Below, one piece after another: positions 7,425-63,717 of a stretch of DNA of 64,000 nt. Under the pieces are notes generated by a model. It was not told the origin of the DNA. It did no database searches and saw nothing but the letters and a program-made list of their open reading frames with translations. Origin of the DNA: a virus; IMG/VR virus record IMGVR_UViG_3300029374_000001, positions 192,001 to 256,000 of that record, one strand, 5' to 3'. The translations under genes and the position numbers were made by a program. Within the stretch, counting starts at the first letter, position 1; each line of letters begins with the position of its first letter.

Positions 7425-8101
7425 GTTCTATCACCTACTGCATCTTTCCATGGAGTATCAAAAAATCCATTAAATTCTTTATCATCCAAATCTCTAAATT
7501 CATAATACATTTTAACAGCAATATGATGAATACGTGAAGTTTCATCATTTAACGTAGAATATATATTCTGCTGCATAATGAACTTCAGCATATGGTAAAT
7601 TGTATATAAGGTATTCACCATAATTGTACGATCTACCGTCTCATCAGTTAAAGAATACTTATCCTCAACAATATCTTTCAATACAGATTCAAAGGATGGA
7701 GTTTCCTTAGATGTAAAGATTGTTCTCAGAGAAGCCAATGCTTTTTCTAGAATAGGATTATCATCCAGATAGTGCCCATTCAAATACCATTCTGGAACAA
7801 TATTAGCTAAGTATGCCTTAGAATATGCTGTATGCCAAATATAACGAGATAGCCGTTTATTTGATACAGCAACAGAGTTTGATTGTATAACATTGATAAC
7901 AAACTTCTCTTCTGTGTTTAATACAGGTCTATCCTTAACATTGTCTCTGATCATATATTCCAATATAGAAAATAGATAGGTCGGAGTAATAATACGCTCG
8001 ATAAACTTATCCATATTTCCTTTTTGACAATACACAACACCATCTCTATTCGTTACAATCTCTTTTAATTCTCTCATCTTCTCTTCATTGAAGTCAATCA
8101 T
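7421..8101 (-). CDS. Hypothetical protein
   Basis: ATG at 8101 overlaps the TGA of the upstream gene (ATGA coupling). Confidence 0.55.
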   Translation of the reverse strand: MIDFNEEKMRELKEIVTNRDGVVYCQKGNMDKFIERIITPTYLFSILEYMIRDNVKDRPVLNTEEKFVINVIQSNSVAVSNKRLSRYIWHTAYSKAYLANIVPEWYLNGHYLDDNPILEKALASLRTIFTSKETPSFESVLKDIVEDKYSLTDETVDRTIMVNTLYTIYHMLKFIMQQNIYSTLNDETSRIHHIAVKMYYEFRDLDDKEFNGFFDTPWKDAVGDRT

Positions 8102-9075: not shown

Positions 9076-9237
9076 TTTACATACTCCTTTGTTTTACTAT
9101 GCATATTTGGAAATTTGAATATATAATAACCTGGGTATATCCCAGGTAAATAGGGATAATCTTAACTATCCGCTTTCATGATATTCCATTACATTCATAA
9201 TACTTCCTCCTTTTGAAAATATAATAACTTCTCAGAT

Positions 9238-9304
9238 ATATAATATATAACTAAAAAAGAAATAGATCACAAAAGATTCAGAGATGGTCTATATAGACCA
9301 TCTC
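9238..9304 (-). promoter_or_regulatory. Terminator-promoter module (palindrome gagatggtctat|atagaccatctc, T-run, TTGTGA-N17-TATATA)
   Basis: Hairpin 9281-9304 immediately 3' of the topoisomerase gene. Minus strand then reads tgaatcttttgtgatctatttcttttttagttatatattatata. Confidence 0.4.
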
Positions 9305-9312
9305 CTTTACTT

Positions 9313-11664: not shown

Positions 11665-11704
11665 TAACAATTTCTTATTAACAAGTTTCTAGTATCGTAG
11701 ACTT

Positions 11705-12136
11705 TTAGTTAGCATGTTTTAATCGTTCTTTGATTTCTTCCTCAGACATATTTTCTCCCAGATCATTATCGAACATAGAAGCAAAATCATTTTTGTGTTC
11801 TCGAACTTCTTTAAGTTTTGCTTCCATATCTTCCATAAAATCTGCTGGCAATGGTTGACCATCGGGCGTAGCGTCAATACCAGCTACGACAGTCTTAGTC
11901 GCCCTATGCACAATATCAAATCCTCCTATACGTCCACATAGATCTTTATGCATAATCAGAAGCATACTTGGATTTTTTATTGATGCATTGGCAATATCAT
12001 CAGGTATAAATACATTGACAAATTCTGCTATCATTTTAATTAGAGTTTCTTTATCGGCACAAGTCGCTATATCTAGATGAACAATTTCACCATTATCATC
12101 ACAGATATCATCTTTCTTTGACTTATCGTCATCCAT
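11705..12136 (-). CDS. Acidic hypothetical protein
   Basis: AAAGGAG 7 nt upstream. D/E-rich termini. Confidence 0.5.
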   Translation of the reverse strand: MDDDKSKKDDICDDNGEIVHLDIATCADKETLIKMIAEFVNVFIPDDIANASIKNPSMLLIMHKDLCGRIGGFDIVHRATKTVVAGIDATPDGQPLPADFMEDMEAKLKEVREHKNDFASMFDNDLGENMSEEEIKERLKHAN

Positions 12137-12257
12137 ATCGTTTACTCCTTTTTAAAAATTAATGAATCAAAGTCAAGGAAGAGCAGATTAGACTGCTCTT
12201 CCCATTCTTCGATTTGTGTATTTATAGTTGTGTATATTTAGAGGAAATTAATTAGAC

Positions 12258-13166
12258 TTATCCGACGTAAGTCTTGGTTTCTCCATTTTCAGGAGTTGCA
12301 ACTGTTACATTCTGTGTTGCAGTTGCAGGCTTCGGAACAGCTACAGCAGTATTTTCTACTACCTGACCACCAATGGGATTGGAAGCACCAGAGAATTGCT
12401 GTGCCTGATCTGCTCTATACTGCGGCATACCGGCCGGAGCATACTGAGGAGCAGGTGCCGGCTGCTGCGGATACTGCATCGGCGGCATAGGCTGCTGCTG
12501 AGGCATCTGGTTATACATCGGAGCCTGTGGCTGCATCTGCGGTGCAGGATACTGAGGTGCCATAGGAGCCGGATACTGCTGAGGCATCATCGGCTGCTGG
12601 AATCCTGCCGGATTAGCCATATAGGGATTCATACCGTTGCCGGAGAATACCTGGCTATACATACCGATGGTATTAAATCCATCATATCCACCCTGCATGT
12701 TCGGCTGAGCCTGCTGTGGTGCATAAGACTTAGCATAATCAGATGCAACTTTCCACATCTGAGGAATCTGACTCAGAACATAGAATGCCGGATAAATTCT
12801 CTTACCAGCTTCCGGATCGATACCACCATAATAGAACTTAATAGATTCTACGATGTCTTTCAGATCACTTATAGTCTGACTGATATCTGTTCCAGGTTCA
12901 ACTGGTTTAAAACGTTCACCACAAATAGTACATTCATACACACCGTCTCCGATATGACGAATTGTACCACGTCCATTGTCGTGGTGAACACACTTTGTCT
13001 TTAAGTTGTCAATAGGAGACATTGCTGTAAAGAACTCCTGTTTCTGCGGCGCTTTTTGCCGCAACAGTGCAATCTCTTCTGGGTTCAAAAGCTGATTGGT
13101 AGCGGGCGGTGTTGGAGCCTGCTGCGGATAAAATCCATACCCAGTCTGACCATAAAAATTCTCCAT
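12258..13166 (-). CDS. Zn-ribbon protein with long P/Q/M/Y-rich low-complexity C-terminal region
   Basis: C-x(n)-H...CTICGERF zinc-ribbon-like site. About 120 aa of PQQYPAPMAPQYPAPQMQPQAPMYNQMPQQQPMPP-type sequence. This is a locally GC-rich island, which explains the spurious + strand ORF 12396..13004. AAGGAGG 5 nt upstream. Confidence 0.55.
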   Translation of the reverse strand: MENFYGQTGYGFYPQQAPTPPATNQLLNPEEIALLRQKAPQKQEFFTAMSPIDNLKTKCVHHDNGRGTIRHIGDGVYECTICGERFKPVEPGTDISQTISDLKDIVESIKFYYGGIDPEAGKRIYPAFYVLSQIPQMWKVASDYAKSYAPQQAQPNMQGGYDGFNTIGMYSQVFSGNGMNPYMANPAGFQQPMMPQQYPAPMAPQYPAPQMQPQAPMYNQMPQQQPMPPMQYPQQPAPAPQYAPAGMPQYRADQAQQFSGASNPIGGQVVENTAVAVPKPATATQNVTVATPENGETKTYVG

Positions 13167-34442: not shown

Positions 34443-36509
34443 ATGGCAAATGATAACTTATATTATGATAATGGCAATAAACTGGATCAATTATTGACTG
34501 AGAGTAATCTGAAAGACCATAATAATGATTCAGACGCACATAAATCTTTATTTGCCCAATATACAAAGAATAATCCGGTAGGCATTCATGGAGCTATGCA
34601 TAAATTAGGTGTTAACTTTAAGCCTACGGATGAATCTACATTGGGCTTTGCTAAGTTGGGTAATTTCTGTTGCACATATACAACTCATAACTGTTTTACC
34701 AATCAGCCGTCTCAGTTTGGACAATTGCTTAGTTATCCGACAGACGTAGATCCTGCTAAGAGTAATGATATCCGAGTAACCCAGATATGGTTTGATGGAT
34801 ATAATGGAGATGTCTTTACACGTACTGGAACTAAGAATAATCCAATTAAAGATTTAGTGTTCAGTAGATTCTATCTAGTTACAGATGAATTCAATCGATC
34901 TGGTACAGAATTTCCAATGGCTGGATTGATTCCTGGTATGTTGTATTATAGAACTGACGAACAGAAGCTGTATATATTACAGAAGATGCCGGCCGTATGG
35001 AAAGAAGTCATTGATACATCTTTGACCTCTGGTGTAGCATCTTCTTTATCTCATGCTTGGTGGAAATTAGATAATACCAATGACGATAAGTCTGTTTATA
35101 GATTTAAGAAGAATGAAGATTTAAATACATATACAACTCCTGGTTGTTATGCATCCATTGGTTCTGCATATTCTGCTACTTTGAAACATTGCCCCTATAC
35201 AGCTGGTAACTTTAGATTGGTCGTACAGGAAAATGTTAAAGGTTGGGGTATGCAATTCTTATATGCCGGCAACCAGAATGAATTATACACCAGAGGATTT
35301 TCTAAATCTCCAGATGGTACTACATATGTATTTACCAACTGGGATAAACAGATGAAATACTCTGATACAATTTCTCATGCTGTTATAGCAGATGCTGATA
35401 AATATGGTAAGCAGATTGATAAAACATATGTAAAGCTAATTGGTGGTGTAATGGAAGGTGCATTGGATGTCAGAGATCGTTTAGGATTATATGATTCCGA
35501 AATGACCTTTGGTAATCCTCCGGCAGTAAGTACTTTCAATAATTTATTCTTCTATGATAGAAATATGAATCCGATGGAAGTTATATCTTCTCGATACGAC
35601 CCAGATGGTTCTCATTATATATGCTTTGGGTCGTATAAGTCTAAAGACGATAATACATTGAATTTACTCTCTCTTGGTTGGAGTGCCTCTGGTACTCCCC
35701 AAGCATTGCTGAAATCTGATATAATATTTAATGGCAATATTAATTGTGATAGAGATATTACGGCTCAGACATTCCATGGAACGATTGATAAAGCGGAAAA
35801 GATTGAAACAACAGCCCCTGTAAATTCTGCCGTTGATTTAATTAGAGCGGGAATGGCTGGTACTGATGCATTCAGAATTAGAATTGGTGATTCTGGTAGT
35901 GATACTGGATGGGCAGAAATAGCTACATCAGATGATGGTAATGAGCCAATTTACGTTCGCCAATATACAAAAGCGACCGCAGCTCCCAATGGATCATTCT
36001 CTACTGTAAAACGCTCTGCCACACTCTTGGATGCTAATGGGGATACTGTATTCCCTGGTGTACTGACTGCACAGAAATGCGTCAATGCTATCTATAATGA
36101 CTATGCAGAATTCTTTGAAAGAGGAGAAGATACAGAAGCAGGAGATATTATTGCGTTAGATTTAACTTCTGATGAAGAAAAATATATTAAGGCAACTAAA
36201 GATTCTTCTGTTGTAGTTGGTGTACACTCTGATGAGTTTGCTTATGTTATTGGTGGTATGACTCCAGATGATACAAGAGATATTGTATCCTTTAATATGG
36301 AGAAGTATATTCCAGTTGCATTAATGGGTCGTGTTCATGTTAAAGTTGCCGGAGAAGTTCATAAGGGAGATAAGATCATTCCTTCCGATTTGGCTGGTGT
36401 CGGCAAAATCGCAAAGCCAGGCGATGATATAACCCATTATGTAGGAATTTGCTTAGAAGATAACAAAGATACAGAAATTAGAAAAGTTAGAATGCTTGTT
36501 AGGAGATAA
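34443..36509 (+). CDS. Tail fibre/spike protein (688 aa)
   Basis: GAGGTGA SD. C-terminal ~120 aa 'GDIIALD..VVGVHSDEF..GRVHVKVAGEVHKGDKI' resembles the conserved C-terminal beta-rich domain seen in many fibre/spike proteins. That similarity is from memory and unverified. Confidence 0.55.
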   Translation: MANDNLYYDNGNKLDQLLTESNLKDHNNDSDAHKSLFAQYTKNNPVGIHGAMHKLGVNFKPTDESTLGFAKLGNFCCTYTTHNCFTNQPSQFGQLLSYPTDVDPAKSNDIRVTQIWFDGYNGDVFTRTGTKNNPIKDLVFSRFYLVTDEFNRSGTEFPMAGLIPGMLYYRTDEQKLYILQKMPAVWKEVIDTSLTSGVASSLSHAWWKLDNTNDDKSVYRFKKNEDLNTYTTPGCYASIGSAYSATLKHCPYTAGNFRLVVQENVKGWGMQFLYAGNQNELYTRGFSKSPDGTTYVFTNWDKQMKYSDTISHAVIADADKYGKQIDKTYVKLIGGVMEGALDVRDRLGLYDSEMTFGNPPAVSTFNNLFFYDRNMNPMEVISSRYDPDGSHYICFGSYKSKDDNTLNLLSLGWSASGTPQALLKSDIIFNGNINCDRDITAQTFHGTIDKAEKIETTAPVNSAVDLIRAGMAGTDAFRIRIGDSGSDTGWAEIATSDDGNEPIYVRQYTKATAAPNGSFSTVKRSATLLDANGDTVFPGVLTAQKCVNAIYNDYAEFFERGEDTEAGDIIALDLTSDEEKYIKATKDSSVVVGVHSDEFAYVIGGMTPDDTRDIVSFNMEKYIPVALMGRVHVKVAGEVHKGDKIIPSDLAGVGKIAKPGDDITHYVGICLEDNKDTEIRKVRMLVRR

Positions 36510-36514: not shown

Positions 36515-37627
36515 ATGGGTAAGTTTTTAAAAAGACAAACCAAAACCATTTTTATTATGCTTGGGAATGGATGTAACTTATCCTGTATATATTGCTTACA
36601 GCATCCACTGGTTCATAAGCCACTGTCTAATAAGATCAATCCAGATATTTATGAGTTTATCAAAGAATGTAACGAAGAGAACGGGAAAGATCATCCCGTT
36701 CATCTTCAATTCTTTGGTGGAGAACCATTGGTATATTATCCTAATATAGAAGAAATCGTAGAAGCGACTAAAGATATAGGATGTACATATTCTGTTATTA
36801 CTAATGGGAAATTGATGAACGATCATATGGTTGAATTTTTTAATAAGAATAACTTTTGGGTAACTATCTCTTGGGATGGGCCTAATGTTATGAAAACCAG
36901 AGGATTTGATGCATTTGATTCGTCCTCCCCATTAAGACGTAGACTATTGCGTTTAGACCATCTATCTATTTCTGCGGTTATGTCATCTAAAGCATATCCA
37001 AAAGAAATTTTAGAAGGTATGCAAGAGATCTCCAACCAATATTATAAACTCAAAGGATATCAAGTAGGAATCAATATTGATCAGATCTTTGATACAGGAA
37101 TAACAAACAAAGAAATTCTGGATGTAGACTATCAAAGAGTCAGAGATGAAATAGAAGAGATGGGAAAAGAATTCTTATTAGATACAATCAACTCCAAATA
37201 TTCCAGAGAATCCTATACAAAGACAATGTTTATTCAAGATCTCTATAACCATATCAATCAATTCTACGGTAAACAAAATGGTGTATGGAATAAATATTAC
37301 TGCAATTGTGGTAATGGATATGCTATATTGAATATGGATTTAGAAGGAAATCTGTATACTTGTCATAATACTTCTACTAAGGTTGGGACAATATATACTC
37401 CCTATTTCCAATATCTGAATGAGGTGTTGAAAACAGATTATACAGACCATATGAGATCTACTTGTAAAGATTGTGTTGCTTTGGCATTCTGTAATGGTGG
37501 ATGTAAGTTAGTTTCTGAGCAAGCCAGAGAAGAAACATATTGCAAATTAAAAAAAGCTGTATTTGAGCCTATGTTGAATTTAATACAAGAATATGGGAAA
37601 ATGGTAGGTGAGTCAAAAAATGCCTAA
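36515..37627 (+). CDS. Radical SAM enzyme with C-terminal SPASM domain (peptide-maturase type)
   Basis: 'GCNLSCIYC' (Cx3Cx2C). 'FFGGEPL'. C-terminal 'CNCGNG..C..CKDCVALAFCNGGC' (Cx2Cx5Cx3C SPASM signature). AGGAGA SD. Confidence 0.8.
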   Translation: MGKFLKRQTKTIFIMLGNGCNLSCIYCLQHPLVHKPLSNKINPDIYEFIKECNEENGKDHPVHLQFFGGEPLVYYPNIEEIVEATKDIGCTYSVITNGKLMNDHMVEFFNKNNFWVTISWDGPNVMKTRGFDAFDSSSPLRRRLLRLDHLSISAVMSSKAYPKEILEGMQEISNQYYKLKGYQVGINIDQIFDTGITNKEILDVDYQRVRDEIEEMGKEFLLDTINSKYSRESYTKTMFIQDLYNHINQFYGKQNGVWNKYYCNCGNGYAILNMDLEGNLYTCHNTSTKVGTIYTPYFQYLNEVLKTDYTDHMRSTCKDCVALAFCNGGCKLVSEQAREETYCKLKKAVFEPMLNLIQEYGKMVGESKNA

Positions 37628-37901
37628 AAATGGAAATATACCTCAAACAGTATTCTCTAATGGAAATCAAGGAGATATTGTTAAGAAAGCATCTATACAG
37701 GAAATACGGAATGCATTAGATGCTTTGAACAATACATATGCTGCCAATGTAGATAATTGTGGAAATTGTACTTTTTGTCAAACCTGCCAGACTCAATCTT
37801 GTCAAGGATGCCAAGTGTGCCAATCTTGCCAGACAGTACATTGGATAGAGCAATGCCCATCTAAAGATTGTAATTGTGTAGATGACGCTGGTTCGGGTTA
37901 A
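37620..37901 (+). CDS. Precursor-like peptide A: leader + (CQx)n cysteine triplet-repeat core
   Basis: Core 'CGNCTFCQTCQTQSCQGCQVCQSCQT...QCPSKDCNCVDDAGSG'. Leader helix 'KASIQEIRNALDALNNTYAAN'. ATG 37620 with GGTAGGTGAG 7 nt upstream (the track's GTG is at 37608). Overlaps the rSAM gene's stop. Confidence 0.6.
   Translation: MPKNGNIPQTVFSNGNQGDIVKKASIQEIRNALDALNNTYAANVDNCGNCTFCQTCQTQSCQGCQVCQSCQTVHWIEQCPSKDCNCVDDAGSG
37757..37836 (+). repeat. Coding (TGY-CAR-NNN)n cysteine-glutamine triplet repeat, peptide A
   Basis: Seven to eight consecutive Cys-Gln-x triplets with synonymous codon variation (tgt/tgc, caa/cag). The repeat is therefore maintained at the protein level. Confidence 0.6.
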
Positions 37902-37912
37902 GAGGTGATATT

Positions 37913-38269
37913 ATGGGATATACAGATCCAGATTTAACTGGTAAACCAATAAAACGACAGCATTTAGAAGAACTCAAAACGGCTATAACTACATTAAGTT
38001 CATCTAAAAAAGTTTCTGTACCGATTAATATCTCTTCTTCTGATAAAGTAACCTCTGCAAATGTAAAAGCATTGCAGAATGCAATTCATAGTTTACAAAC
38101 CAAGTTCTCCAATAATTGCTGTCAAGCCAATTGCTGTCAGACTTGCCAGGTTTGTCAAGGATGTCAAACCTGCCAGGGTTGTCAGACATGTCAAAGTTGC
38201 CAAACCAATAAAGAATGTTATAATCCAAACTGCGATTGCAACTGTGGAGATGATGGAGGAGGAGGTTAA
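37913..38269 (+). CDS. Precursor-like peptide B: leader + (CQx)n cysteine triplet-repeat core
   Basis: Core 'CCQANCCQTCQVCQGCQTCQGCQTCQSCQT..ECYNPNCDCNCGDDGGGG'. Leader carries two copies of an L-x-x-L/I-x-x-A-I-x-x-L helix motif. AAGAGGTGA 4 nt upstream. Confidence 0.6.
   Translation: MGYTDPDLTGKPIKRQHLEELKTAITTLSSSKKVSVPINISSSDKVTSANVKALQNAIHSLQTKFSNNCCQANCCQTCQVCQGCQTCQGCQTCQSCQTNKECYNPNCDCNCGDDGGGG
38117..38205 (+). repeat. Coding (TGY-CAR-NNN)n cysteine-glutamine triplet repeat, peptide B
   Basis: Ten Cys-Gln-x triplets with variable third residue (A/T/V/G/S). Confidence 0.6.
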
Positions 38270-38649
38270 TGATGATTATTTCTGGACAAATTTTAACAAT
38301 AGATGGACCGAAAGATCTGAAAGATGTTACCAAGTTGGATTGGGTTCTCTCGGGTACTATTCCTACCAGAATTATAGATATACAGAAAACAACTGTTAAG
38401 ACATATAAAACGTTCTCTACTGTTCCCACTCTATGGGTTGGTAAAGATACAAAAATGAAGACCATACATGGGTTGATGAATATGAAAAATAAAGATGAAG
38501 CTGATTTAACCAGACCATATACAACAGATATTCATGTAGCGGCTTCTATTAAAAAATCTGATGAAGAATTAACTGGGTATATCTTTAAATTAGCCAATGG
38601 AAGTCATACCATCGTTGTAGAGAACTGTGAGGTTGAATGCGATGCTTAA
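38269..38649 (+). CDS. Hypothetical protein in rSAM cassette
   Basis: ATGATG directly after GGAGGAGGAGGTTAA of the previous gene. Confidence 0.5.
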   Translation: MMIISGQILTIDGPKDLKDVTKLDWVLSGTIPTRIIDIQKTTVKTYKTFSTVPTLWVGKDTKMKTIHGLMNMKNKDEADLTRPYTTDIHVAASIKKSDEELTGYIFKLANGSHTIVVENCEVECDA

Positions 38650-39478
38650 GATATTATTTAATAAAGATAGCACAGATACTCATTTGAAATATAATATGGA
38701 TTTATTAGGAACCTTTCTTTCTCTACGCTGCGAAAATACGGATCCTGCTTATTTAGCTTCTGGTAGAGATGGAGTAGAAGTATTGGATTCTTATACTTCC
38801 TATGTATTTGTAAACAATCCAAATTCTATTGTAAAGAACTTTAGAGTTCCTACTAAGTCCGCTTATAAGTTTTTAAATATGAATCGTCTTGGCGTAGCTA
38901 TTCGAATGGATTATTCTGATATGGCACAATTATTCTCTAATGGAGATACTATGTGCCAGATAGATACCGGAATGATTTCCAGTACAGAGAAAGATATTAT
39001 CATTAGATTCTTTGTAGGAACAAAAGCTAACTTTAATATCCAAACAGATATGGATGTAGAGTATGGTGAGTTCAGTTCTGCAGATTTGCCTTCCCAAAGT
39101 CATCCAAGAGCGACACTTTGGGATAGCTATTCTTTGAAAATAGACGATATTGAGTATAAGGCCGATAGGTATGGGAATGGTGTACAAGGAACGTTCCAAA
39201 CGCCCATTTCTTATAAAAACGTACCGATTGAATTAACTATTCAAAAGTATAAAGGAAACTTCTCTGCAACTAAATTAACCAGAGATATAGATTGTGAAGA
39301 TGTATTAATAGATTGCTCTTGTGGTGTATTGGATACTAAGAGAGTTTCTTTAAATAAAGGAATAGCTAAAGTCCATTTATATCCATTTGACTACTCTGGT
39401 AAAGTAAAAATTAAGTTGGGCAGAAAATGGTATGAAGTATGGAATGAATATAATTTAATCTTAGAGAAGAAGCCATGA
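38642..39478 (+). CDS. Hypothetical protein in rSAM cassette
   Basis: Start set at ATG 38642 (GTGAGG 9 nt upstream) rather than the track's GTG 38627. Confidence 0.5.
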   Translation: MLKILFNKDSTDTHLKYNMDLLGTFLSLRCENTDPAYLASGRDGVEVLDSYTSYVFVNNPNSIVKNFRVPTKSAYKFLNMNRLGVAIRMDYSDMAQLFSNGDTMCQIDTGMISSTEKDIIIRFFVGTKANFNIQTDMDVEYGEFSSADLPSQSHPRATLWDSYSLKIDDIEYKADRYGNGVQGTFQTPISYKNVPIELTIQKYKGNFSATKLTRDIDCEDVLIDCSCGVLDTKRVSLNKGIAKVHLYPFDYSGKVKIKLGRKWYEVWNEYNLILEKKP

Positions 39479-40449
39479 AATCTATCAGCATATATTTAGG
39501 CAGTAAGTGTAACATGAATTGTTCTTATTGCCATAGAATAGAATCTGAAGAAGAAAACCATATTTCAGATGAGCTCATTGCTCATCTGAAGTCTATGGGC
39601 AAAATTCATATTAGTTTTTTTGGTGGAGAACCTACTCTATATATGGATGATATCAAAAGAGTAGTAGAAGCTATGCCAGAAAATTCATATAGAATTACAA
39701 CCAATGGAATTCTCTTTGATAAATATAGAGAATTCTTTTTAAAATATAATTTCAAAGTGGCATTTTCTTATGATGGAAATAATGCATTACGTTCTAAAGA
39801 TATTTTAGATCATCCAATAGAATATCCATTTGTTAATATCTCTTGTACTCTCTTTCATGGAAATACAGATTTAGAATATATTATGCATCAATTTAATGAG
39901 AAAGAGAAAGTCATATCAGTCAGACTTTCTTTATATCCTCATATCATGCATATGACTTCAGAGTCTAATAAACCATATGCATTAACCAGAGAAGATTATA
40001 CTTCTTTGATTGAACAAATCAAAACCTATGTATCCAAATATGTTATAGATTTTGAGAAATATGGTATTATGAATTATAGAATTAATGGACTATTCATATT
40101 GGTTAATTCTTTATTGAATAATAACTATGAATATGGTGAAACCTATTGTGTTCATCGTAATATAAAGAAAATAGATACATCTGGAAAAATGTATACTTGT
40201 TTATATATGAGAGATGATCAACTATTTCCAGATACATGGCAACAAGATTTAGCCAATGTCATTGATAAGACCTTTACAGATTGTAAAACATGTTCTTATT
40301 ATAGATATTGTGGTTCTGCTTGTGTTAAATCTAAAGAACATGAGTTAGAATGTTATTTCTATAAGAGACTCATTATTTGGGGATTACAATTTAGAAACCA
40401 TCATAAAGAAGCTTTTCAAGAATTATCTAAGATCATTAGGAGGAAATAA
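39475..40449 (+). CDS. Second radical SAM/SPASM enzyme
   Basis: 'KCNMNCSYC' (Cx3Cx2C). 'FFGGEPTL'. C-terminal 'C..CKTCSYYRYCGSAC' (Cx2Cx5Cx3C). ATGA overlap with the upstream gene. Confidence 0.8.
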   Translation: MKSISIYLGSKCNMNCSYCHRIESEEENHISDELIAHLKSMGKIHISFFGGEPTLYMDDIKRVVEAMPENSYRITTNGILFDKYREFFLKYNFKVAFSYDGNNALRSKDILDHPIEYPFVNISCTLFHGNTDLEYIMHQFNEKEKVISVRLSLYPHIMHMTSESNKPYALTREDYTSLIEQIKTYVSKYVIDFEKYGIMNYRINGLFILVNSLLNNNYEYGETYCVHRNIKKIDTSGKMYTCLYMRDDQLFPDTWQQDLANVIDKTFTDCKTCSYYRYCGSACVKSKEHELECYFYKRLIIWGLQFRNHHKEAFQELSKIIRRK

Positions 40450-41132
40450 TGCATTTATTTGTATTTGATGATGCTGTCAGAAAAACAGATCTGAAAGAGA
40501 ATATCAAACTGAATATATATGATGATCATATTTTTCATTTCTTCCATAATGATCACAAGTTAATTATAGATACAGATTTATTAAGAGATGGATCCAGTAC
40601 AATAGTTCTATATAGTCAAGCAACAGACAATACTTATGTATTATATGACTTTAGAGAATTATTAGAGATTTTAGATATGACTCCAAAAGAAATGCTGACC
40701 AATCTCAATCAAAAAGGATTCATGCAAATTGATAAATGTAATAACAATACATTTATTAAAGTTTTCTTGCTTAGAGGAGAAACAGAGCTATCTAGCGATA
40801 CTCATAACTTTGCTTCCTATAAGCATTATACCATAGATTATATTCATCCGTTGGATTGGAAATATAGCTGGACAATTCATGATGCAAAAGCTGTGTTGTC
40901 TGAAGACTATAAAAAAGTAACCATATCTTTCAATATGAAACGTTCTGATTTCTGGATAAAAGATTTATATATCTCTCATGCTGGTCAGACAGAAAAAATA
41001 AAAGAGGGATACAATGAAGTTACTTTTACTTATATAGAAACAGAAGATGTTTATTTTGGAAATCCTAATTGTCATTATAAAGGAAGATGTTTGAATCTGA
41101 CCAGATTACTCTATGAAACCAACCTAAAGTGA
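40449..41132 (+). CDS. Hypothetical protein (last gene of cassette)
   Basis: AGGAGG 5 nt upstream. ATG overlaps the rSAM stop. Confidence 0.5.
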   Translation: MHLFVFDDAVRKTDLKENIKLNIYDDHIFHFFHNDHKLIIDTDLLRDGSSTIVLYSQATDNTYVLYDFRELLEILDMTPKEMLTNLNQKGFMQIDKCNNNTFIKVFLLRGETELSSDTHNFASYKHYTIDYIHPLDWKYSWTIHDAKAVLSEDYKKVTISFNMKRSDFWIKDLYISHAGQTEKIKEGYNEVTFTYIETEDVYFGNPNCHYKGRCLNLTRLLYETNLK

Positions 41133-41214
41133 GATATTCCTATAAAGGAATATCTCTTTTATTCCAGTCAACATTTCAGTAAATTCATGAATTTATATAG
41201 AGAGGGTGAATAAC

Positions 41215-42945
41215 GTGCCAGATGATCCTATTCATACTACCGTCATACGAAAAGCCAGATTTAGAACGGTTAAAGATGGTATCGAACAAATTATTCATTA
41301 TGAAACAGATGTAGATAGTATAGTAGACTTAAAGAAAAAGTTAAATGGTATTATTACATCTCAAATAGATAAAGATGCAATTACACAGGCTATTATAGAT
41401 GATATTAATAATGGTGGGCATTTAGACTTACATTTGGAGAGATATGCTTTATTAGATTCTCCTGTATTTATTAATCAACCCAAAGCTCCTACACCAGCAG
41501 TTACCGATAATAGCACCAGACTCGCTACAACAGCATTTGTTAAAACATATGTGCCAACAGCTATTGACGCTAAGCTGATCGATTATCAGACCAATATCGT
41601 TAACAATACAGCATTGACCGGTACACCTACGGCTCCCACTGCTGCGGTAGGAACATCAACAACGCAGATTGCTACGACTGAATTTGTTCATAATCAGATT
41701 ACATCCAATCTGAATGATTATGCCAAATTGAATTCTCCTGTATTTACAGGAACTCCTAAAGCTCCTACGGCTGCCGCTACATCTAATGATACAACAATTG
41801 CTACAACAGCATTTGTTAAACATGCATTGGATAACGCGCATATTTCATTGACTTTTGATAATACGCCTATTGGTGGGTCTGTAAACCCCATCACTTCAGA
41901 TGGTATTTTTAAAGCGATTAAAGCGGCTAAAGATTCTTTTGCCACTGTGGCCACTACAGGAAATTATAATGATTTAATCAATAAACCAGGAATAGCTACT
42001 TCTTCTACAGAAGGTTTTGTTAAGATCTATAATTCTACAGGAACCAATGTAGATGGTACAATGACGCAATTGTCTATCTCCAATGCATTAGATCAAAAAA
42101 TGGATAAGGCTACATTATCTACGGTAGCTACTACAGGTAAATTTACTGATCTGAATGATATTCCAACAGCCACCGATACCATTAAAGGGATTACTAAATT
42201 ATATAGTAATACAGGTACTCATAGTGATGGAGCTATATCTCAAGCCGCATTTACTGCTGCTATGGATAACTACTTAAAGTTATCTGGTGGTAAAATGACT
42301 GGTATTATAGACATGGATACCTATAATATCGAAATGCTTTCTAATAGCACTAATGGTATTAAATGGTATAAGATGGTTGGAGGAAATAAAACATATGATG
42401 GTCAATTGACTCCAAATAACTATACAGGTACAGCGGCTAAAGCTATAGCGGATAAAAATGGTAATGCAATTGATACATACTATGCTACAAAAGCAGAATT
42501 GTCTGTTATTCCTAAATTCCAAATTTTGATTGTCAATGCTCTTCCAACAACAGATATATCCAAAACAACCATCTACTTAGTAAAAGATCCTAGTGGTCAT
42601 GAAGGAGATCTGTTTAAAGAATATATCTATACATCAGAAGATAAATGGGAATTAATTAGTTCTCCAAAAATTAATTTGGATGGGTATGTACTAAAAGCAG
42701 AATTAGACAGCAAATTATTATTAAAGGCTGATTTAAATTCTCCTATGTTTACTGGTACACCATCTGCTCCTACAGCCAGTATAGATACATATACTGATCA
42801 GTTGGCCACCACCAAATGGGTAACTGATAAAATTGGTTCTCATAAAGTAACCCAGATTACTGAACCAGGAGATGATTCTTTACAAGAATCTATTAAGATG
42901 CATCAATTATGGGTAGATATAACTGGAGATAGTGATATACCGTAA
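41215..42945 (+). CDS. Tail fibre protein with classical fibre repeats
   Basis: Four 'S/T-x-x-(L/I)ATTAFV(K/H)' repeats (RLATTAFVK, QIATTEFVH, TIATTAFVK, QLATTKWVT), as in many tail-fibre shafts. GTG 41215 with GAGAGGGTGA 5 nt upstream (the track's GTG is at 41206). Confidence 0.65.
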   Translation: MPDDPIHTTVIRKARFRTVKDGIEQIIHYETDVDSIVDLKKKLNGIITSQIDKDAITQAIIDDINNGGHLDLHLERYALLDSPVFINQPKAPTPAVTDNSTRLATTAFVKTYVPTAIDAKLIDYQTNIVNNTALTGTPTAPTAAVGTSTTQIATTEFVHNQITSNLNDYAKLNSPVFTGTPKAPTAAATSNDTTIATTAFVKHALDNAHISLTFDNTPIGGSVNPITSDGIFKAIKAAKDSFATVATTGNYNDLINKPGIATSSTEGFVKIYNSTGTNVDGTMTQLSISNALDQKMDKATLSTVATTGKFTDLNDIPTATDTIKGITKLYSNTGTHSDGAISQAAFTAAMDNYLKLSGGKMTGIIDMDTYNIEMLSNSTNGIKWYKMVGGNKTYDGQLTPNNYTGTAAKAIADKNGNAIDTYYATKAELSVIPKFQILIVNALPTTDISKTTIYLVKDPSGHEGDLFKEYIYTSEDKWELISSPKINLDGYVLKAELDSKLLLKADLNSPMFTGTPSAPTASIDTYTDQLATTKWVTDKIGSHKVTQITEPGDDSLQESIKMHQLWVDITGDSDIP

Positions 42946-42958
42946 TATATAGTAGTGT

Positions 42959-42993
42959 AAGAGAGGTCTTCTATAGACCTCTCTTATTTTTAT
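42959..42993 (+). terminator. Rho-independent terminator (aagagaggtct..agacctctctt + ATTTTTAT)
   Basis: 11-bp stem, followed by a T-run, directly after the fibre gene. Confidence 0.55.
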
Positions 42994-43016
42994 AATTAGG
43001 AGGACTAACAATTGAA

Positions 43017-43628
43017 ATGGATAAATTTAAAGAATATATTAAGCTCAATGATCGTAGTCTGTGGTATCTTGTCCTCGGTATCGTTATCATATGCGGAATC
43101 ATTGGATACTACATCTTCCACTACAACGACCATGGAACTGGTGAACAAATTAGAGATACAATACAACAATCAAAGTCAGAAAATGCTAAAACTAAAGACG
43201 CAGTACGAAGAGCTACAGACTCAGTTCGATCTGCTTCAAAAACAGCTGGAGGCATCTCAGATACAAATACGGAATTACAAAGACAACAACGTAAATCAGC
43301 AGAAACAATACAATCTGCTGCAGACCAATTACGAGATGCTCAAAGCACAGCTAAAGACCTCGAAAGAACTCTCTCAGAAGCAGAATCAACAACTGCAGAA
43401 CTTGACAGGACTTTTGAACAGCTTAAAGTATTACAATCAGACGGAACAAAATCTATCGACGCAGCAGAGTCAGCAAATCATTCAGCTTATGACACAGCTC
43501 ATGGAATCCGAGAGAAACTTAATGGAAGCCAACAACAGTTTAGAGAATATGAAGAAGCTGATCGAGAAATTAGAAACACAATTCAACGATTACGAGAAGT
43601 GGGTCAAGAGAACGGAACGCAGACATAA
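43017..43628 (+). CDS. Membrane-anchored coiled-coil protein (N-terminal TM helix); alternative overlapping frame 43012..43692 also fully open
   Basis: The 43017 frame has AT-rich third positions like the rest of the genome, with AGGAGG 13 nt upstream. The alternative TTG-initiated frame has GC-rich third positions. It does, however, encode a signal peptide, a Q/L coiled coil and a C-terminal TM, and it ends 1 nt before the next gene. Confidence 0.45.
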   Translation: MDKFKEYIKLNDRSLWYLVLGIVIICGIIGYYIFHYNDHGTGEQIRDTIQQSKSENAKTKDAVRRATDSVRSASKTAGGISDTNTELQRQQRKSAETIQSAADQLRDAQSTAKDLERTLSEAESTTAELDRTFEQLKVLQSDGTKSIDAAESANHSAYDTAHGIREKLNGSQQQFREYEEADREIRNTIQRLREVGQENGTQT

Positions 43629-43693
43629 ATACCAAAAGATTCTTATTGGTATGATAGCTACCGGGGCTGGTTATTCATTGGGGAATATGTAAT

Positions 43694-56461: not shown

Positions 56462-58282
56462 TTAGTTATCAAAATCATATGTATTAAATGCCGGATCTGG
56501 CAAGAGATACTGGTTGGTCTTAAACATCAGTCCAATAATAGTAACAATAGCATCCAGAATAACAATATCGGATTGAATAGAAGATAATACTTTTCTATCA
56601 TATTCTCCTGTTCTTAAATTCAATGGGCAGTTATATTTCAAAGAATCATTAACGATTTCATTGAGTCTTGATTCAGATACTGTATTATCCTTGTTGTAAA
56701 TCAATTGGAACAGGGACTTATAGGCATCCAGTATTAAGCGAATAGCGTCTTTTGTAAGGTCTTCCGCATAGGGGTACTGACTATAGTCAATAGCGTGCTC
56801 TTTACCCATAATTTCCACCATTAACTGGCAGCATGCTTTCAACGCTTCGAAGTTTGCTCCATAGCCTACACCATATTCTGCAGCAGATCTACAATTCAAT
56901 ACAGCATCTTCTACCAAGTCTTTCTTAGCATCTCTATCTGTATAAGAAATACCACCAATCAAGTAGTCAACCATATTACATTCTAATGTCTGAATACGTC
57001 TCTTCAGTTTATAGATTTCGGTAACGTCTTTTTTAGTTTCTTCATATTTCTGTAATTCAGACTTTAATGATTTAACCAAGTTTTCATACATAGAAGACTT
57101 AGATCCATCTTTGTTATACATCATAGCTGGATTGATAATCTTTGTCATCTTAGCATCGGAGATAACCTGTTCGGCACTACCAGCAAAAGAGTGTACATTC
57201 TTCGGAGTAGCAGCAATACCCTTTTCAATATCAATCTTTTGAATATTGGGGTCGATATATTTCTTAATTGTCTTAGCTCCAGACAATTTAGCCAAATCAT
57301 ACAGATAATCTAACCGAGTAATATTAGTAACCATAAGCAGTTTAGGTCTCTGTTCCGGCGGATAGTTTCCAATAGTCTGCAATACCTGGTCTAATTCGGA
57401 ACGTACATCTTCACTATACTTAGGAGCTAATATAACAGTAGGAACTTCTCCAGGCATACTAAGAGCGTCTTTCTTACCATCTCTCATTGCTTCATTGCGT
57501 GTAGCCAATGGCATAATGATATTTTCTGTAACAATTGTTCCCAGCAGAGCCATCATTTCTGGCGTATCAATAGGATCTTCAAAGATATAAATCTTAGGAT
57601 CTCTAATTACACAAGTAGAGTCTTTTGCATTGTTAATAAAGTTTGCATTGAAGTATCCTACATCAAAAGTAAATCCATCATAAGATTTCAGAATATTATC
57701 TGTGGTATTGGAAATGCCTACATCGATATAGACAGAGTTACCATAGTCTTCATAGATCTTCTTAATATTCTGGGCAATCTCTTCATCACCATCTGTAGAT
57801 GTATAAGCAATATTATAGATGTCTTCTAAGGTAACTTTACGTCCATCTTTTTCTATGATTTCATAGATTCTTTCCGCAACGTTTTCTACTTTCTTCAGAA
57901 TTTCTTTTTCAGAAACATTGTATTCTTTACAATAATTATTCAATTTATGGAACAGTTTATAAGACAGAATAACAGAAGAGGTAGTACCATCTCCTACCGT
58001 CTTTACCGTATTTCTGGTTACATTTCTCAGATCATCCACAATAGACATTTCGATGGGTTTATTAAACTTAACGGCCCCTAAGATCTTATGCCCATCTTTG
58101 GTATAATCTGTACGTCCACTATCTTTCTTATCTACTACAGATCTCATTTCTGTGGTAGAGCCATCCGGTCCATAAGAGTTCTGTAATACATTAGCAATTG
58201 TTGCTAATGTCTCATCTTGCACTTCTCTCAAAATGCTCTTGGAAACCACATTGTTTATTGCCTTTGCTCTAATTGTGCCCAT
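56462..58282 (-). CDS. Chaperonin Cpn60/TCP-1 family (group-II-like), phage-encoded
   Basis: N-terminal equatorial-domain motifs 'GPDGSTTEMRS', 'TKDGHKIL' and 'VGDGTTSSVIL' (the GDGTT(S/T) ATP-binding loop). 606 aa. GGAGGA 4 nt upstream. Confidence 0.6.
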   Translation of the reverse strand: MGTIRAKAINNVVSKSILREVQDETLATIANVLQNSYGPDGSTTEMRSVVDKKDSGRTDYTKDGHKILGAVKFNKPIEMSIVDDLRNVTRNTVKTVGDGTTSSVILSYKLFHKLNNYCKEYNVSEKEILKKVENVAERIYEIIEKDGRKVTLEDIYNIAYTSTDGDEEIAQNIKKIYEDYGNSVYIDVGISNTTDNILKSYDGFTFDVGYFNANFINNAKDSTCVIRDPKIYIFEDPIDTPEMMALLGTIVTENIIMPLATRNEAMRDGKKDALSMPGEVPTVILAPKYSEDVRSELDQVLQTIGNYPPEQRPKLLMVTNITRLDYLYDLAKLSGAKTIKKYIDPNIQKIDIEKGIAATPKNVHSFAGSAEQVISDAKMTKIINPAMMYNKDGSKSSMYENLVKSLKSELQKYEETKKDVTEIYKLKRRIQTLECNMVDYLIGGISYTDRDAKKDLVEDAVLNCRSAAEYGVGYGANFEALKACCQLMVEIMGKEHAIDYSQYPYAEDLTKDAIRLILDAYKSLFQLIYNKDNTVSESRLNEIVNDSLKYNCPLNLRTGEYDRKVLSSIQSDIVILDAIVTIIGLMFKTNQYLLPDPAFNTYDFDN

Positions 58283-61638: not shown

Positions 61639-61665
61639 AATTAAATCTGTAATATGATTCAGCTA

Positions 61666-63717
61666 TTAGGGAATGTTGTTCAGTTTAGCCGGAATCTTGA
61701 TATGACCCTTAGTCGGGCTGCCATCTGCGGCATCAATTACGCCGTTAACTTCAGAGCTGTACTGTTCAGTATTAGCTGTGTTGTCGTTCATAGCGTTGAT
61801 TCCGATGTAATCATTGTCGCTTGCCATAGCTACGTTCTCCCTGAGGCCAGACGGATTCAGGATACGAATACGGCCCTGTACAGGCTGATACTGCAGGAAC
61901 AACCAACGTTCGAAGCAGGTCATAGCCGGGGTCTCGTACTGTACCGTATCACGAATTTCGCTGGAAATATACATCTGATAATCAATAACCTTGTAGGTAA
62001 TACGCATGCTATTTCTAGGAATGAGCAGTACAATCAGGTTATTGTTATTTCTCATCTTCTGAGAGGAGATGAAGTTGTAAACACGATGTTCGCTTGTTAC
62101 AACAGTCCGTTTGAAATCAAGTTCAACCGGTCCGATGTTGGACGGTGTCTGATAAGTGTAGGACTGCGGCGAAATACGACGGATGAGGTCCGGACGTCCG
62201 AATACTGCAACTGTCATATTTTCATCATTGAGAACCTGGAGCATACGGGTTACGTACTGATCAAGGTTATCCATGAACATAACTTTACGCCATTCAACCG
62301 GGTTGTTGTTGTAGTTGAGAGGCGGAGCGAAGTCGAAAGCACCAGAAACTTTAGCTACATCAGGCATTGTGAGGAAGCTATCGTTCAGGTTCTGGAGAAT
62401 GGAGTCATCCTTCCAGTGGAGCAGGCCAAGTCTCATCATGGACATAAGCTTTGTTACCTGGTTTACGTCGTAGAGAGCCTGGATATCTTTAACTTCTTCC
62501 GGAGATACTGTGCAGGTGATGTGCGGAGCTTCCGGAATTTCGTAGAAGTTAGTCATTGCAGACCATTTGAATTTAACGGTCGGGAACTGAGCTGTAGATA
62601 CGTCAACAACTGCATGAATAATAACGCCTTCTACAAAGCCAGCATTACCTGTAACAATAACCGCACCAGTATCAGCATTGATAGCCGGAGCACTCATGAG
62701 CATAATCTTGTTGCCCTGAGAAGCGTTACCCATCAGGTTAATGGTAACTTTTACAGAAGTAGTAGCAGTAGCCGGTACAGAGAGAGCAATTCTCTTGTTG
62801 AGAACGCGATCCATAGCACCATAGCCAGGGTTGAACATACCGTCAACGTCGAATACCAGTTTCTTACCAGCACCAACATCAGCAGTTTCAGCTACTTTGA
62901 ATTTACGATTTGCATCATCATAAATCAGGTCGCCTTCAGCAGCATAACCTGTAACAATGATTCTCTTAACCATGGTCTTCATGGAGAGAGTTGTGTTTCT
63001 GAGGATACGATCCGGAACCTGATCAGCAGTGAATGCGTCATGAACGAGGTTTCCGTTCAGAGCGTCACCACGAGCACCGTTACCACCGAGGGAAGCAGCA
63101 GAACCGATAATTTCTTTCGGAGCTACATCGCCAGCCAGTGCACCTGCAGCAGTAGCAGCAACAAAGAAATCAACAGACGGAATAGAAGCATCGACTGCCG
63201 GTTTAATCTTGTTCTGTTCTGCAAAGATGTCGAATTCGTTACCATCAACATCTACCATGGTACGAGTTTCCATGGTCAGTGTGAACTTCGGAGAACGTGC
63301 AACGTCTTTCGGCATAACCTGATCAAATACAGCGTTCATCAGGATGTTTTTATGCATCGGGAGAGCCATACCGATTACAGGGTTATAAGCACCGAGTGTA
63401 GTGGATTCCTGCTGGATCTGTGCTACGTCGTTTTCGAACAATGCTTCCATGTTGTCAACATGTTCAGCTACAGCATCAGCGCTCTGGAATCTCGGATCAT
63501 TCTGATCGAAGGAGTCTTCTACGAAGGACTTCTTCATTTCGTTTTTAGCAAGATCGCTTGTGAAGAATTCGCCAGGATTTCTGAAGATATCATAGCCAGC
63601 TTCCTGATGAACACCTCTTGCAACGTCAAGGAACTGTTCTGCAACAGCATGCATCGGATCGGATGCATATCCGCGGAGATCGAGTTTCTTGTTATCAATT
63701 GAGCTAAGAATAGCCAT
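61666..63717 (-). CDS. Major virion structural protein, probable major capsid protein (683 aa)
   Basis: Strong AAGGAGGAAAG SD, then 5 nt, then ATG. Markedly GC-rich third positions (ctg/aac/gtt/ggc), unlike the rest of the genome, consistent with a very highly expressed gene. Flanked by a strong terminator. Size is in the range of jumbo-phage MCPs. The fully overlapping + strand ORF 61654..63702 is C/H/R/S-rich and judged an antisense artefact. No fold-level evidence is available. Confidence 0.5.
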   Translation of the reverse strand: MAILSSIDNKKLDLRGYASDPMHAVAEQFLDVARGVHQEAGYDIFRNPGEFFTSDLAKNEMKKSFVEDSFDQNDPRFQSADAVAEHVDNMEALFENDVAQIQQESTTLGAYNPVIGMALPMHKNILMNAVFDQVMPKDVARSPKFTLTMETRTMVDVDGNEFDIFAEQNKIKPAVDASIPSVDFFVAATAAGALAGDVAPKEIIGSAASLGGNGARGDALNGNLVHDAFTADQVPDRILRNTTLSMKTMVKRIIVTGYAAEGDLIYDDANRKFKVAETADVGAGKKLVFDVDGMFNPGYGAMDRVLNKRIALSVPATATTSVKVTINLMGNASQGNKIMLMSAPAINADTGAVIVTGNAGFVEGVIIHAVVDVSTAQFPTVKFKWSAMTNFYEIPEAPHITCTVSPEEVKDIQALYDVNQVTKLMSMMRLGLLHWKDDSILQNLNDSFLTMPDVAKVSGAFDFAPPLNYNNNPVEWRKVMFMDNLDQYVTRMLQVLNDENMTVAVFGRPDLIRRISPQSYTYQTPSNIGPVELDFKRTVVTSEHRVYNFISSQKMRNNNNLIVLLIPRNSMRITYKVIDYQMYISSEIRDTVQYETPAMTCFERWLFLQYQPVQGRIRILNPSGLRENVAMASDNDYIGINAMNDNTANTEQYSSEVNGVIDAADGSPTKGHIKIPAKLNNIP

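Follow-up and report, generated by a model that had tools for sequence, protein, structure and literature searches.

A phage tail-fibre cassette of Cys-repeat proteins and two radical-SAM/SPASM enzymes suggests chemical cross-linking of host-recognition fibres

Side-chain cross-links are known to stabilise extracellular assemblies, as in the HK97 capsid chainmail and in the isopeptide and thioester bonds of Gram-positive pilins, all of which form autocatalytically. In the QhpD/QhpC system the linkage is made by an enzyme: QhpD, a radical S-adenosylmethionine (radical SAM) protein with a SPASM domain, joins Cys sulfur to beta or gamma carbons of Asp/Glu, and the small protein that receives these Cys-to-Asp/Glu thioethers is kept as a structural subunit and not secreted. 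Similarly, NxxcB links Cys to Asn. PapB, the enzyme of the freyrasin system, forms the same kind of bond, from the sulfur of Cys to a beta or gamma carbon in Asp/Glu, and requires that the acidic acceptor be C-terminal to the donor Cys (PMC12373016). Here we describe a viral locus that can be compared with these systems. It is a cassette of seven genes at positions 36515-41132 of a 64,000-nt stretch of DNA (IMG/VR virus record IMGVR_UViG_3300029374_000001, positions 192,001 to 256,000; the whole stretch is referred to as the window), and it encodes two radical-SAM/SPASM enzymes (rSAM1 and rSAM2), two small Cys-repeat proteins (A and B) and three accessory proteins, which we name by their lengths. 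The module suggests that these phages chemically cross-link their host-recognition fibres. We put at roughly 0.6 the probability that it is a host-range module whose two SPASM enzymes introduce cross-links into fibre proteins with Cys repeats. The cross-links are probably Cys-to-Gln/Asn/Asp thioethers, a chemistry that we infer from the conserved residues and from the relatives of the enzymes. The suggestion draws on gene content, enzyme family, conservation, synteny, purifying selection, fusion architectures, and the occurrence of the same C-terminal tail in fibres.

The cassette resembles the PapB/freyrasin, CteB-SCIFF and NxxcB systems in that SPASM enzymes with two auxiliary clusters are encoded beside putative substrates with Cys-rich repeats. 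With PapB it also shares the placement of an acidic acceptor C-terminal to the donor Cys, here in a C-x-C-x-D-D tail (PMC12373016). Unlike the PapB and CteB systems, it has no protease, no exporter and no N-terminal recognition element (RRE) for a ribosomally synthesised and post-translationally modified peptide (RiPP); its enzymes score far below the family cutoffs, and the putative substrates are proteins of fibre type, some of them 300-980 aa in length or carrying folded domains as fusions. A further difference from PapB systems is that Gln predominates as the putative acceptor. The likeness to QhpD/QhpC is that a small substrate would stay a structural subunit of a larger complex, but here the score is below the cutoff, the substrate is repetitive, the setting is a phage, and there is no dehydrogenase. 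In contrast to the HK97 and pilin bonds, to which there is no sequence relationship, the links of the cassette would be installed by dedicated radical enzymes. The kind of enzyme is thus already known; what are new are its proposed use on virion fibre proteins, the repeat and the probably Hint-derived helper. In agreement with an earlier note on this DNA, which was aware of no described phage structural module of such composition, the full-text literature gave no report that links radical-SAM/SPASM enzymes to tail fibres or that describes Cys-triplet fibre repeats, and no family in Pfam, NCBIfam or PHROG describes A, B or the three accessory proteins.

The cassette genes, the fibre gene that precedes them and the hairpin that follows them are:

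34443..36509, plus strand: tail-fibre protein, 688 aa, upstream of the cassette, with a chaperone-like (Peptidase_G2/IMC-like) domain in the C-terminal ~160 aa (about 36024-36509)
36515..37627, plus strand: radical-SAM/SPASM enzyme 1 (rSAM1), 370 aa, without an N-terminal RRE
37620..37901, plus strand: protein A, 93 aa (97 aa from the alternative start GTG 37608)
37913..38269, plus strand: protein B, 118 aa
38269..38649, plus strand: 126-aa free-standing Hint-like protein
38642..39478, plus strand: 278-aa immunoglobulin (Ig)-like beta-sandwich protein (283 aa from GTG 38627)
39475..40449, plus strand: radical-SAM/SPASM enzyme 2 (rSAM2), 324 aa, a paralogue of rSAM1
40449..41132, plus strand: 227-aa protein with two beta-sandwich domains
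41131..41156, plus strand: terminator-like hairpin followed by a T-run, which ends the cassette transcription unit

The earlier note had placed seven plus-strand open reading frames (ORFs) in this segment, with all junctions overlapping or no more than 11 nt apart, inside a tail-fibre operon between two fibre genes, and this layout holds; the fibre on the upstream side has 688 aa and the one on the downstream side 579 aa. rSAM1 and A overlap by 8 nt (ATG 37620) or 20 nt (GTG 37608), A and B are separated by 11 nt, and B and the 126-aa gene share TAATG; the 126-aa and 283-aa genes overlap by 8 nt (ATG 38642) or 23 nt (GTG 38627), the 283-aa gene and rSAM2 by 4 nt, and rSAM2 and the 227-aa gene by 1 nt. 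All seven genes are under purifying selection, with ratios of nonsynonymous to synonymous substitution (dN/dS) of 0.05-0.13, including 0.12 for A and 0.08 for B, when the window is compared with L001. (L numbers denote the loci compared, and P numbers denote family proteins with differing architectures.)

That both enzymes are true radical-SAM/SPASM proteins, as had been proposed, was confirmed by profile searches and by the motifs themselves. The CX3CX2C motif within a PF04055 core and a GGE-type motif, which define the radical SAM superfamily, are found in both, and the Pfam PF04055 scores of 46.3 bits (rSAM1; E 6.8e-12) and 40.8 bits (rSAM2; E 3.4e-10) exceed the cutoff of 29.5. The SPASM pattern (CX9-15GX4C, CX2CX5CX3C, C), corresponding to two auxiliary 4Fe-4S clusters, is likewise complete in each. 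In rSAM1 the motifs are C20x3C24x2C27, GGEP at 68-71, C263x14Gx4C283, C317x2Cx5Cx3C330 and C343; in rSAM2 they are C12x3C16x2C19, GGEP at 50-53, C225x11Gx4C242, C270x2Cx5Cx3C283 and C293. The SPASM profile TIGR04085 is matched by rSAM1 with 37.2 bits (cutoff 27). For rSAM2 no SPASM profile match is listed, and the assignment comes from the motif and from the alignment to rSAM1, which extends over the full length, including the SPASM cysteines (26% identity, E 7e-19).

Assignment to a characterised family is another matter. The top profile matches of the enzymes are PapB, nif11-rSAM, QhpD and the SCIFF maturase, and all are far below the family cutoffs. PapB (NF047865) is the best NCBIfam match of both, at 96.5 bits for rSAM1 (E 1.7e-27) and 65.6 bits for rSAM2 (E 4.3e-18), compared with a cutoff of 340, so neither qualifies as a PapB-family member. 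The QhpD profile (TIGR03906) matches rSAM1 with 86.8 bits (E 1.2e-24; cutoff 453), and there is no QhpC/dehydrogenase context; the profile of the anaerobic sulfatase maturase (anSME; TIGR03942) gives 65.8 bits (E 3.6e-18; cutoff 349), and A and B have no C/S-x-P/A-x-R motif. Judged by these similarities, the nearest characterised relatives of the enzymes are thioether-forming peptide and protein maturases, namely PapB, QhpD and the SCIFF maturase CteB. Among structures in the PDB, the best match of rSAM1 is CteB (5wgg), aligned from CteB residue 95, and that of rSAM2 is SuiB, which is a weak match. Because the CteB alignment begins at residue 95, rSAM1 is missing the RRE; it has only ~10 residues before the radical SAM core, and rSAM2 starts at the core, so that no RRE was found in either. 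No PqqD match was obtained for any of the seven cassette proteins with Pfam. A tblastn search of 50,697 deposited phage genomes with rSAM1 returned only relatives with less than 27% identity.

Proteins A and B have the same overall plan. A begins with MPKNGNIPQT, and its helix motif (37689-37748) is followed by NVDNCGNC, by runs of Cys-Gln-x (CQx) triplets at 37776-37793 and 37800-37835, and by the C-terminal tail CNCVDDAGSG. In B the N-terminal region is longer, the helix motif (38057-38116) is followed by NNCCQANCCQ, and eight CQx triplets (38135-38206) lead to the tail CDCNCGDDGGGG. The earlier description of a core of 8-10 consecutive triplets therefore fits B, which has eight plus one isolated CQA, but not A, which has only six, in runs of two and four. 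The shared helix motif is present as described, except that one residue rather than two follows the first Ala; the corrected form is A-x-[IV]-x-x-[IL]-x-N-A-[LI]-x-x-L-x-x-x-[YF]-[AS]-x-N.

Neither protein matches an NCBIfam or Pfam family, including the profiles for SCIFF and Cys-rich RiPP precursors. We gave no weight to a PHROG "tail fiber protein" match of A (phrog_36260, E 0.004), which is found for only 2 of 11 A-type proteins. Relatives are abundant: B as query found 66 family clusters in a set of 5.8 billion proteins, and a profile of A and B found 187 representatives (E<=1e-3) in a set of 1.84 billion. On the strength of these alignments the Cys-repeat family is real and not a product of chance. 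Its members fall into two orthologous types, A (M-A-x-N-G-x-I...NVDNCGNC...) and B (M-A-Y-T-D...FSxNCCQxNCCQTCQ...), and every canonical locus has one of each. Common to both are the helix motif, CQx repeats in which C and Q are invariant and the third position varies, and the tail NCxCxC-(G/S)-DD. The commonest Cys-Cys spacing in the family is 3; the +1 position is Gln in 73% of triplets and otherwise E, N, D and a few others, and the +2 position is mostly T, S or G. Since Cys codons (TGT/TGC) and Gln codons (CAA/CAG) are mixed, the repeat is kept at the protein level. In the C-x-C-x-D-D tail, the acidic residues lie 3-4 positions C-terminal to Cys, with spacings of CX3D and CX2D.

The earlier note had framed A and B as a helical leader followed by a core, in the manner of RiPP precursors. 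The helix and the Cys core do exist, but the helix and the NCxCxC-DD tail are also found inside full-length tail fibres, which calls for a revision of that framing. In L026, L027 and L030 the A/B pair is absent, and its place is taken by fibres that end with ...LLQQLVNxSHT...NCNCDCDC(G/S)DD, namely one fibre of 324 aa, another of 463 aa with collagen-like GXY repeats, and proteins of 212/213 aa, with one such fibre end at L027 2485-3876; these precede the same rSAM1, Hint-like, 278-aa, rSAM2 and 227-aa genes. Other members are fused to folded domains. In P0235, P0242, P0266 and P0315, which are of B type, the Cys run passes straight into a true Hint domain starting CF..GT.V, and the Pfam profile Hom_end_hint matches three of the five fused Hint domains tested, including that of the Achromobacter phage JWF protein gp28 (best E 7e-13). 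The C-terminus of P0276 we take to be an intramolecular chaperone of the Peptidase_S74 type, from its SSDARLK motif. From their sequences, the N-terminal domains of P0274, P0300 and P0314 are read as discoidin-like and the C-terminal domains of P0321 as LamG-like.

Siphoviral prophages encode a third protein of this kind (207-213 aa), which follows a Tal-like gene and ends with ...GTYTLRxVIQHLxNxS...NCNCDC(G/S)DD. It is located at 6190-6813 in L004, with equivalents in L007, L009, L011, L013, L019, L020, L024 and L034, so that each such prophage has three chains with a Cys knot. It may be that A and B, joined in prophages by this third NC-tail protein, assemble into a heterotrimer held by covalent staples.

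Comparable arrangements recur independently at two more distant loci. In phage JWF (L015, NC_029075, 3670-7592), the tail fibre gp28 has an (N/D-C) run, NCNCDCNCNCSC, followed by a Hint domain, and a 241-aa protein and a radical-SAM/SPASM enzyme come next, between the central fibre J and the endolysin. A much more extreme case is the metagenomic contig L039 (ENA ERZ23499107 scaffold_801, 4076-12747), where tail proteins of 666 and 980 aa terminate in (C-[DQNE]-x)n stretches that reach about 400 aa, and five small proteins (93-252 aa) consist almost wholly of this repeat; the 561-aa radical SAM protein of the locus has repeated CxNCYTCE motifs in its N-terminus. A broader proposition is that phages of anaerobic diderm Firmicutes, and independently some others, build part of their tail fibres from (C-[QDEN]-x)n repeats and an N-C-x-C-x-C-D-D knot, with C-S bonds welded by dedicated radical SAM enzymes. 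A virion structural protein would then be seen for the first time to receive radical cross-links from an enzyme. We consider this proposition tentative, with slightly less than even odds.

Two further remarks concern JWF. Its gp28 is annotated only as a "Hom_end-associated Hint family protein", and its radical SAM protein is elsewhere annotated as an anaerobic sulfatase maturase. It is a cultured phage, and so would be a tractable model for the idea of cross-linked fibres.

The distribution of the cassette is that of a mobile tail module. Close syntenic relatives of the window (L001-L003) come from human-associated metagenomes, and the same cassette, in the same order, occurs in many unrelated siphovirus-type prophages, where it lies 3' of the tape-measure, Dit, Tal and fibre genes and 5' of the holin/endolysin. 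A scan with the profile of the 278-aa protein, using one genome per species, gave 19 loci; the identifiable hosts are all Negativicutes (Megasphaera, Acidaminococcus, Phascolarctobacterium, Dialister, Succiniclasticum and Selenomonadaceae). Cultured carriers are Megasphaera sueciensis TMW 2.2488 (L034; NZ_CP116939, 345689-358504), Acidaminococcus massiliensis Marseille-P2828 (L020; NZ_LT608315, 1436808-1449629), A. fermentans WCA-389-WT-5B and Phascolarctobacterium faecium. Of the loci, 24 are long enough to judge; each of them has both enzyme genes together with those of the 278-aa and 227-aa proteins, and in 21 (all except L026, L027 and L030) the A and B pair is located between rSAM1 and the Hint-like gene. 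At all of the loci compared, the cassette is 3' of a fibre with a homologous C-terminal domain: in L004, L007, L009, L011 and L013, the C-terminal 160 aa of the fibre upstream of rSAM1 are 45-50% identical to window 36024-36509, and the homologous domain is also present in L014, L019-L024, L029 and L031-L034. Beyond the fibre C-terminus and the cassette, the prophage tails have nothing in common with the window, and for this reason we regard the fibre C-terminus plus the seven genes as the unit that is exchanged. Host-range cassettes, consisting of a fibre tip plus its chaperone, are exchanged in like manner. The gene data thus have the marks of a tail-fibre module, namely a position in a distal-tail block, exchange together with a fibre C-terminus, and homologues fused to fibre domains. 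One further locus, on a 45-kb contig of a "Ruminococcus" metagenome-assembled genome, is suspected to be a mis-binned phage contig.

The accessory proteins can be compared with known fibre helpers. Like the Peptidase_S74 and G2 fibre chaperones, Tfa, and T4 gp38 and gp57, which are self-cleaving or separate helpers located at or just after the fibre C-terminus and exchanged jointly with it, the cassette places its helper set behind a fibre; unlike these, the set comprises a probably Hint-derived protein and two radical SAM enzymes, a combination for which no description was found with any fibre. A profile of seven orthologues of the 126-aa protein matched the gp41-1 intein (E 2.7e-4) and a bacterial intein-like (BIL) domain (E 0.04) in the PDB, and the L007 orthologue has a weak precomputed match to Pfam Hint_2. 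The gene occupies the position that the fused Hint domains have in P0235, P0242, P0266, P0315 and JWF gp28. Those fused relatives carry true Hint domains, starting with Cys, straight after the Cys run, and so resemble other Hint/BIL domains; the window protein, by contrast, is free-standing and has Met where the nucleophilic Cys is expected. The catalytic Cys1 is missing from all seven orthologues, which start M(M)I[IV]; the His of the block-B motif Thr-x-x-His is not conserved, the C-termini vary, and the terminal Asn is not conserved. Because all three features are lacking, the 126-aa protein is not an active intein, and from its sequence relationships it is probably Hint-derived, with the nucleophile lost. 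For the 278-aa protein a model with Ig-like beta-sandwiches was obtained (predicted local distance difference test score, pLDDT, 91.9), and for the 227-aa protein a model with two beta-sandwiches (pLDDT 94.2) and weak similarity to SPP1 gp22. Neither has a match in sequence-profile searches of the PDB, and hhalign gave no match between the 278-aa profile and the proteins that neighbour the radical SAM genes of phages RP12 and JWF. The folds are thus of the beta-sandwich/Ig-like kind and not those of a protease, transporter or RRE.

In the mechanism that we propose, A and B would each consist of an N-terminal docking region, an amphipathic helix, a (Cys-Gln-x)n shaft and a C-terminal N-C-x-C-x-C-(G/S)-D-D knot. 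They would be substrates of both enzymes and would be part of the virion. Late in infection, in the anaerobic host cytoplasm, the SPASM enzymes would abstract hydrogen from acceptor residues (Gln in the shaft, Asn/Asp in the knot) and join the Cys sulfur to the carbon. Thioether staples would thereby arise inside a chain or from one chain to another, possibly those of a trimer. Being insensitive to redox conditions, they would stiffen the fibre and lock it covalently; a lock that withstands reduction would serve phages whose hosts are strict anaerobes. The 126-aa Hint-derived protein may be a detached assembly chaperone, with the role that self-cleaving Hint, S74 or G2-type domains have in the fused relatives, and the 278-aa Ig-like and 227-aa beta-sandwich proteins may be adaptors or further structural parts. 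We propose thioether staples because the only invariant residues of the repeat are Cys, which provides a thiol, and a residue with a carbonyl side chain (Gln in the shaft, Asn/Asp in the knot), as would fit a donor/acceptor pair; because the relatives of the enzymes link Cys to acidic or amide residues; and because the tail obeys the PapB rule that the acceptor be C-terminal to the donor. A division of labour, with one enzyme for the shaft and one for the knot, is not supported, since loci without a CQ shaft keep both enzymes.

Several observations weigh against this interpretation. Neither enzyme reaches the cutoff of any characterised family, so that the chemistry could differ (formylglycine formation, epimerisation or C-C links), and we know of no established use of Gln as a thioether acceptor by the closest enzymes. 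The 126-aa protein is assigned to the Hint proteins on weak matches (E 2.7e-4 to the intein; 28% probability with hhalign against the fused Hint domains). Co-variation of the A and B core lengths is expected for an in-register heteromer; the lengths are similar (mean difference 0.6 aa), but Spearman rho is 0.19, which is not significant, and the loci are not independent. The window phage has A and B only, and no third NC-tail protein. None of 50,697 deposited phage genomes gave a match to the cassette with megablast, or to B, the 278-aa protein or the 227-aa protein with tblastn. Finally, the slot between fibre and lysis genes that it occupies in prophages is a classic moron site.

The alternative that best survives is that the fibres are stabilised by metal or disulfides, and that the radical SAM enzymes form formylglycine in the manner of anSME, carry out epimerisation, form C-C links, or act on another substrate. 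In addition to the cutoffs, the near end-to-end coverage of rSAM1 by the anSME profile (17-358 of the enzyme and 8-358 of the 363 profile positions) is consistent with it, as is the PDB match of rSAM2 to SuiB, which forms Lys-Trp C-C cross-links; T4 fibres, too, are known to have metal sites on their three-fold axis. We nevertheless consider it unlikely. The CxPxR sulfatase motif is not found in A or B, Trp is absent from the conserved core, and the repeat keeps only Cys and Gln (or Asn/Asp) invariant, as would fit a donor with its acceptor; in strictly anaerobic gut hosts, moreover, disulfides would hardly be reliable.

It could also be supposed that A and B are classical RiPP precursors, of a ranthipeptide- or sactipeptide-type bacteriocin or signal, that are modified by the radical SAM enzymes and released on lysis, the cassette being a moron. 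They are indeed small Cys-rich proteins with a conserved N-terminal helix and a variable repeat core, encoded beside two SPASM enzymes whose best profile matches are RiPP maturases, and the position between fibre and lysis genes in prophages is generally known as a moron hot spot. The main support comes from a variant locus, L014, which has three more radical SAM genes and a ThiF-like enzyme, and has the look of a RiPP cluster. However, no RRE, leader peptidase, exporter, immunity gene or regulator was found; for the protease, exporter and immunity gene of a classical RiPP cluster, the seven proteins were searched with Pfam and NCBIfam, and the three accessory proteins by fold comparison. The genes are translationally coupled inside a structural operon with no promoter signal of their own; promoter-like sites are no commoner than in shuffled sequence. 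The supposed leader helix and the C-terminal tail are also part of full-length fibres that go with the same enzymes, other family members are fusions with lectin-like, S74 or Hint domains, and the cassette travels with a fibre C-terminal domain. For these reasons we prefer to regard A and B as mini tail-fibre proteins and not as precursors that are cleaved, and a RiPP cassette appears distinctly improbable. The earlier note had left open whether the products are fibre components or a phage-delivered RiPP, and comparative genomics thus favours the former.

The conservation data exclude a decaying or functionless passenger from a host RiPP island, for which only the patchy distribution speaks. 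More than 20 loci have all frames intact, dN/dS is 0.05-0.13, and the fetched loci place the cassette without exception in tail modules of phages or prophages, with no free-standing island among them.

If fibre cross-linking by the two SPASM enzymes is true, it would be a new class of post-translational modification in virus assembly, and would link RiPP-type chemistry to virus morphogenesis. It would explain how extracellular fibres are stabilised without disulfides in phages of strict anaerobes, define a new fibrous protein repeat, and give a testable role to many unexplained "radical SAM" genes of phage genomes. For protein stapling, the attraction would be SPASM enzymes that are leader-independent or internally guided and accept folded proteins. 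The module is, in addition, a marker for phages of gut Negativicutes, from which hardly any phages have been cultured.

Several loci stand apart from the canonical cassette. L014 (Logan SRR30124066_5952, 1-8631) has the same fibre C-terminal domain upstream, five radical SAM genes in all, a ThiF/E1-like gene and two paralogues of about 260-277 aa, with no homologues of the Hint-like, 278-aa or 227-aa proteins. Its A and B end in ...SH and not in ...DD(G/S), which hints at another route of C-terminal processing. The radical SAM gene of Campylobacter phage F379 was not counted, as it lies among nucleotide and replication genes with no Cys-rich ORF, and Ralstonia phage RP12 has three clustered radical SAM genes near virion genes but no Cys-repeat ORF. 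The radical SAM gene of L018 (MT835472, a human faecal "Bacteriophage sp." contig of 91 kb deposited as phage) belongs to a classical SCIFF pair that is unrelated to the fibre module; at 7450-8993, a SCIFF-like peptide (MKHIKTLNTRKLQNTVKKGGCGECQTSCQSACKTSCTVGNQTCEHCK) is encoded directly 5' of it. Providencia phage PSTNGR1 (L040, T7-like) has a Hint-ended protein after the fibre but no Cys run and no radical SAM gene. This protein (4551-5504, 317 aa) follows large tail-region genes, and its C-terminal half is a Hint domain (WSVS|CFTEDCLVLMADG...). It implies that Hint processing of tail-associated proteins is broader than the link to radical SAM enzymes, and such autoprocessing seems to be more widespread than annotated.

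Downstream of the cassette, the window continues with:

41206..42945, plus strand: second tail-fibre gene, 579 aa, which is context and lies outside the mobile module
42957-42987: terminator-like hairpin of the second fibre gene

The 579-aa fibre has PHROG tail-fibre matches down to 8.7e-33, and shares only generic fibre repeats with the prophage modules; the 688-aa fibre has a weak match to Pfam Peptidase_G2 (E 1.1e-3). The cassette sits in the sole plus-strand block of the window (22.6-44.2 kb), which also encodes a 1776-aa LamG/CBM protein and two further large proteins. The remaining genes are on the minus strand, and the GC skew turns positive within this fibre block. The window phage has T4-like replication genes, a G+C content of about 32%, no tRNA genes found in the 64 kb, and no DNA-level relative among deposited phage genomes. 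A minus-strand ORF at 38025-38465 (146 aa) is judged to be spurious because it runs antisense to B and to the gene of the 126-aa protein, both of them under purifying selection.

Directly after the second fibre, two plus-strand ORFs in different frames overlap almost completely, at 43012-43692 (226 aa, TTG) and 43017-43628 (203 aa, ATG). Each has a hydrophobic start followed by a low-complexity or coiled-coil-like region, and the frame kept by the gene callers of the relatives is the 203/206-aa one. At 61654-63717, antiparallel ORFs of 682 and 683 aa occupy the same DNA, neither with a Pfam match, and the G+C fraction is 0.43, compared with about 0.32 elsewhere. A minus-strand gene at 56462-58282 encodes a chaperonin-like protein of the Cpn60/TCP-1 family, with a Pfam match (E 2.5e-16) that covers the N-terminal half only.

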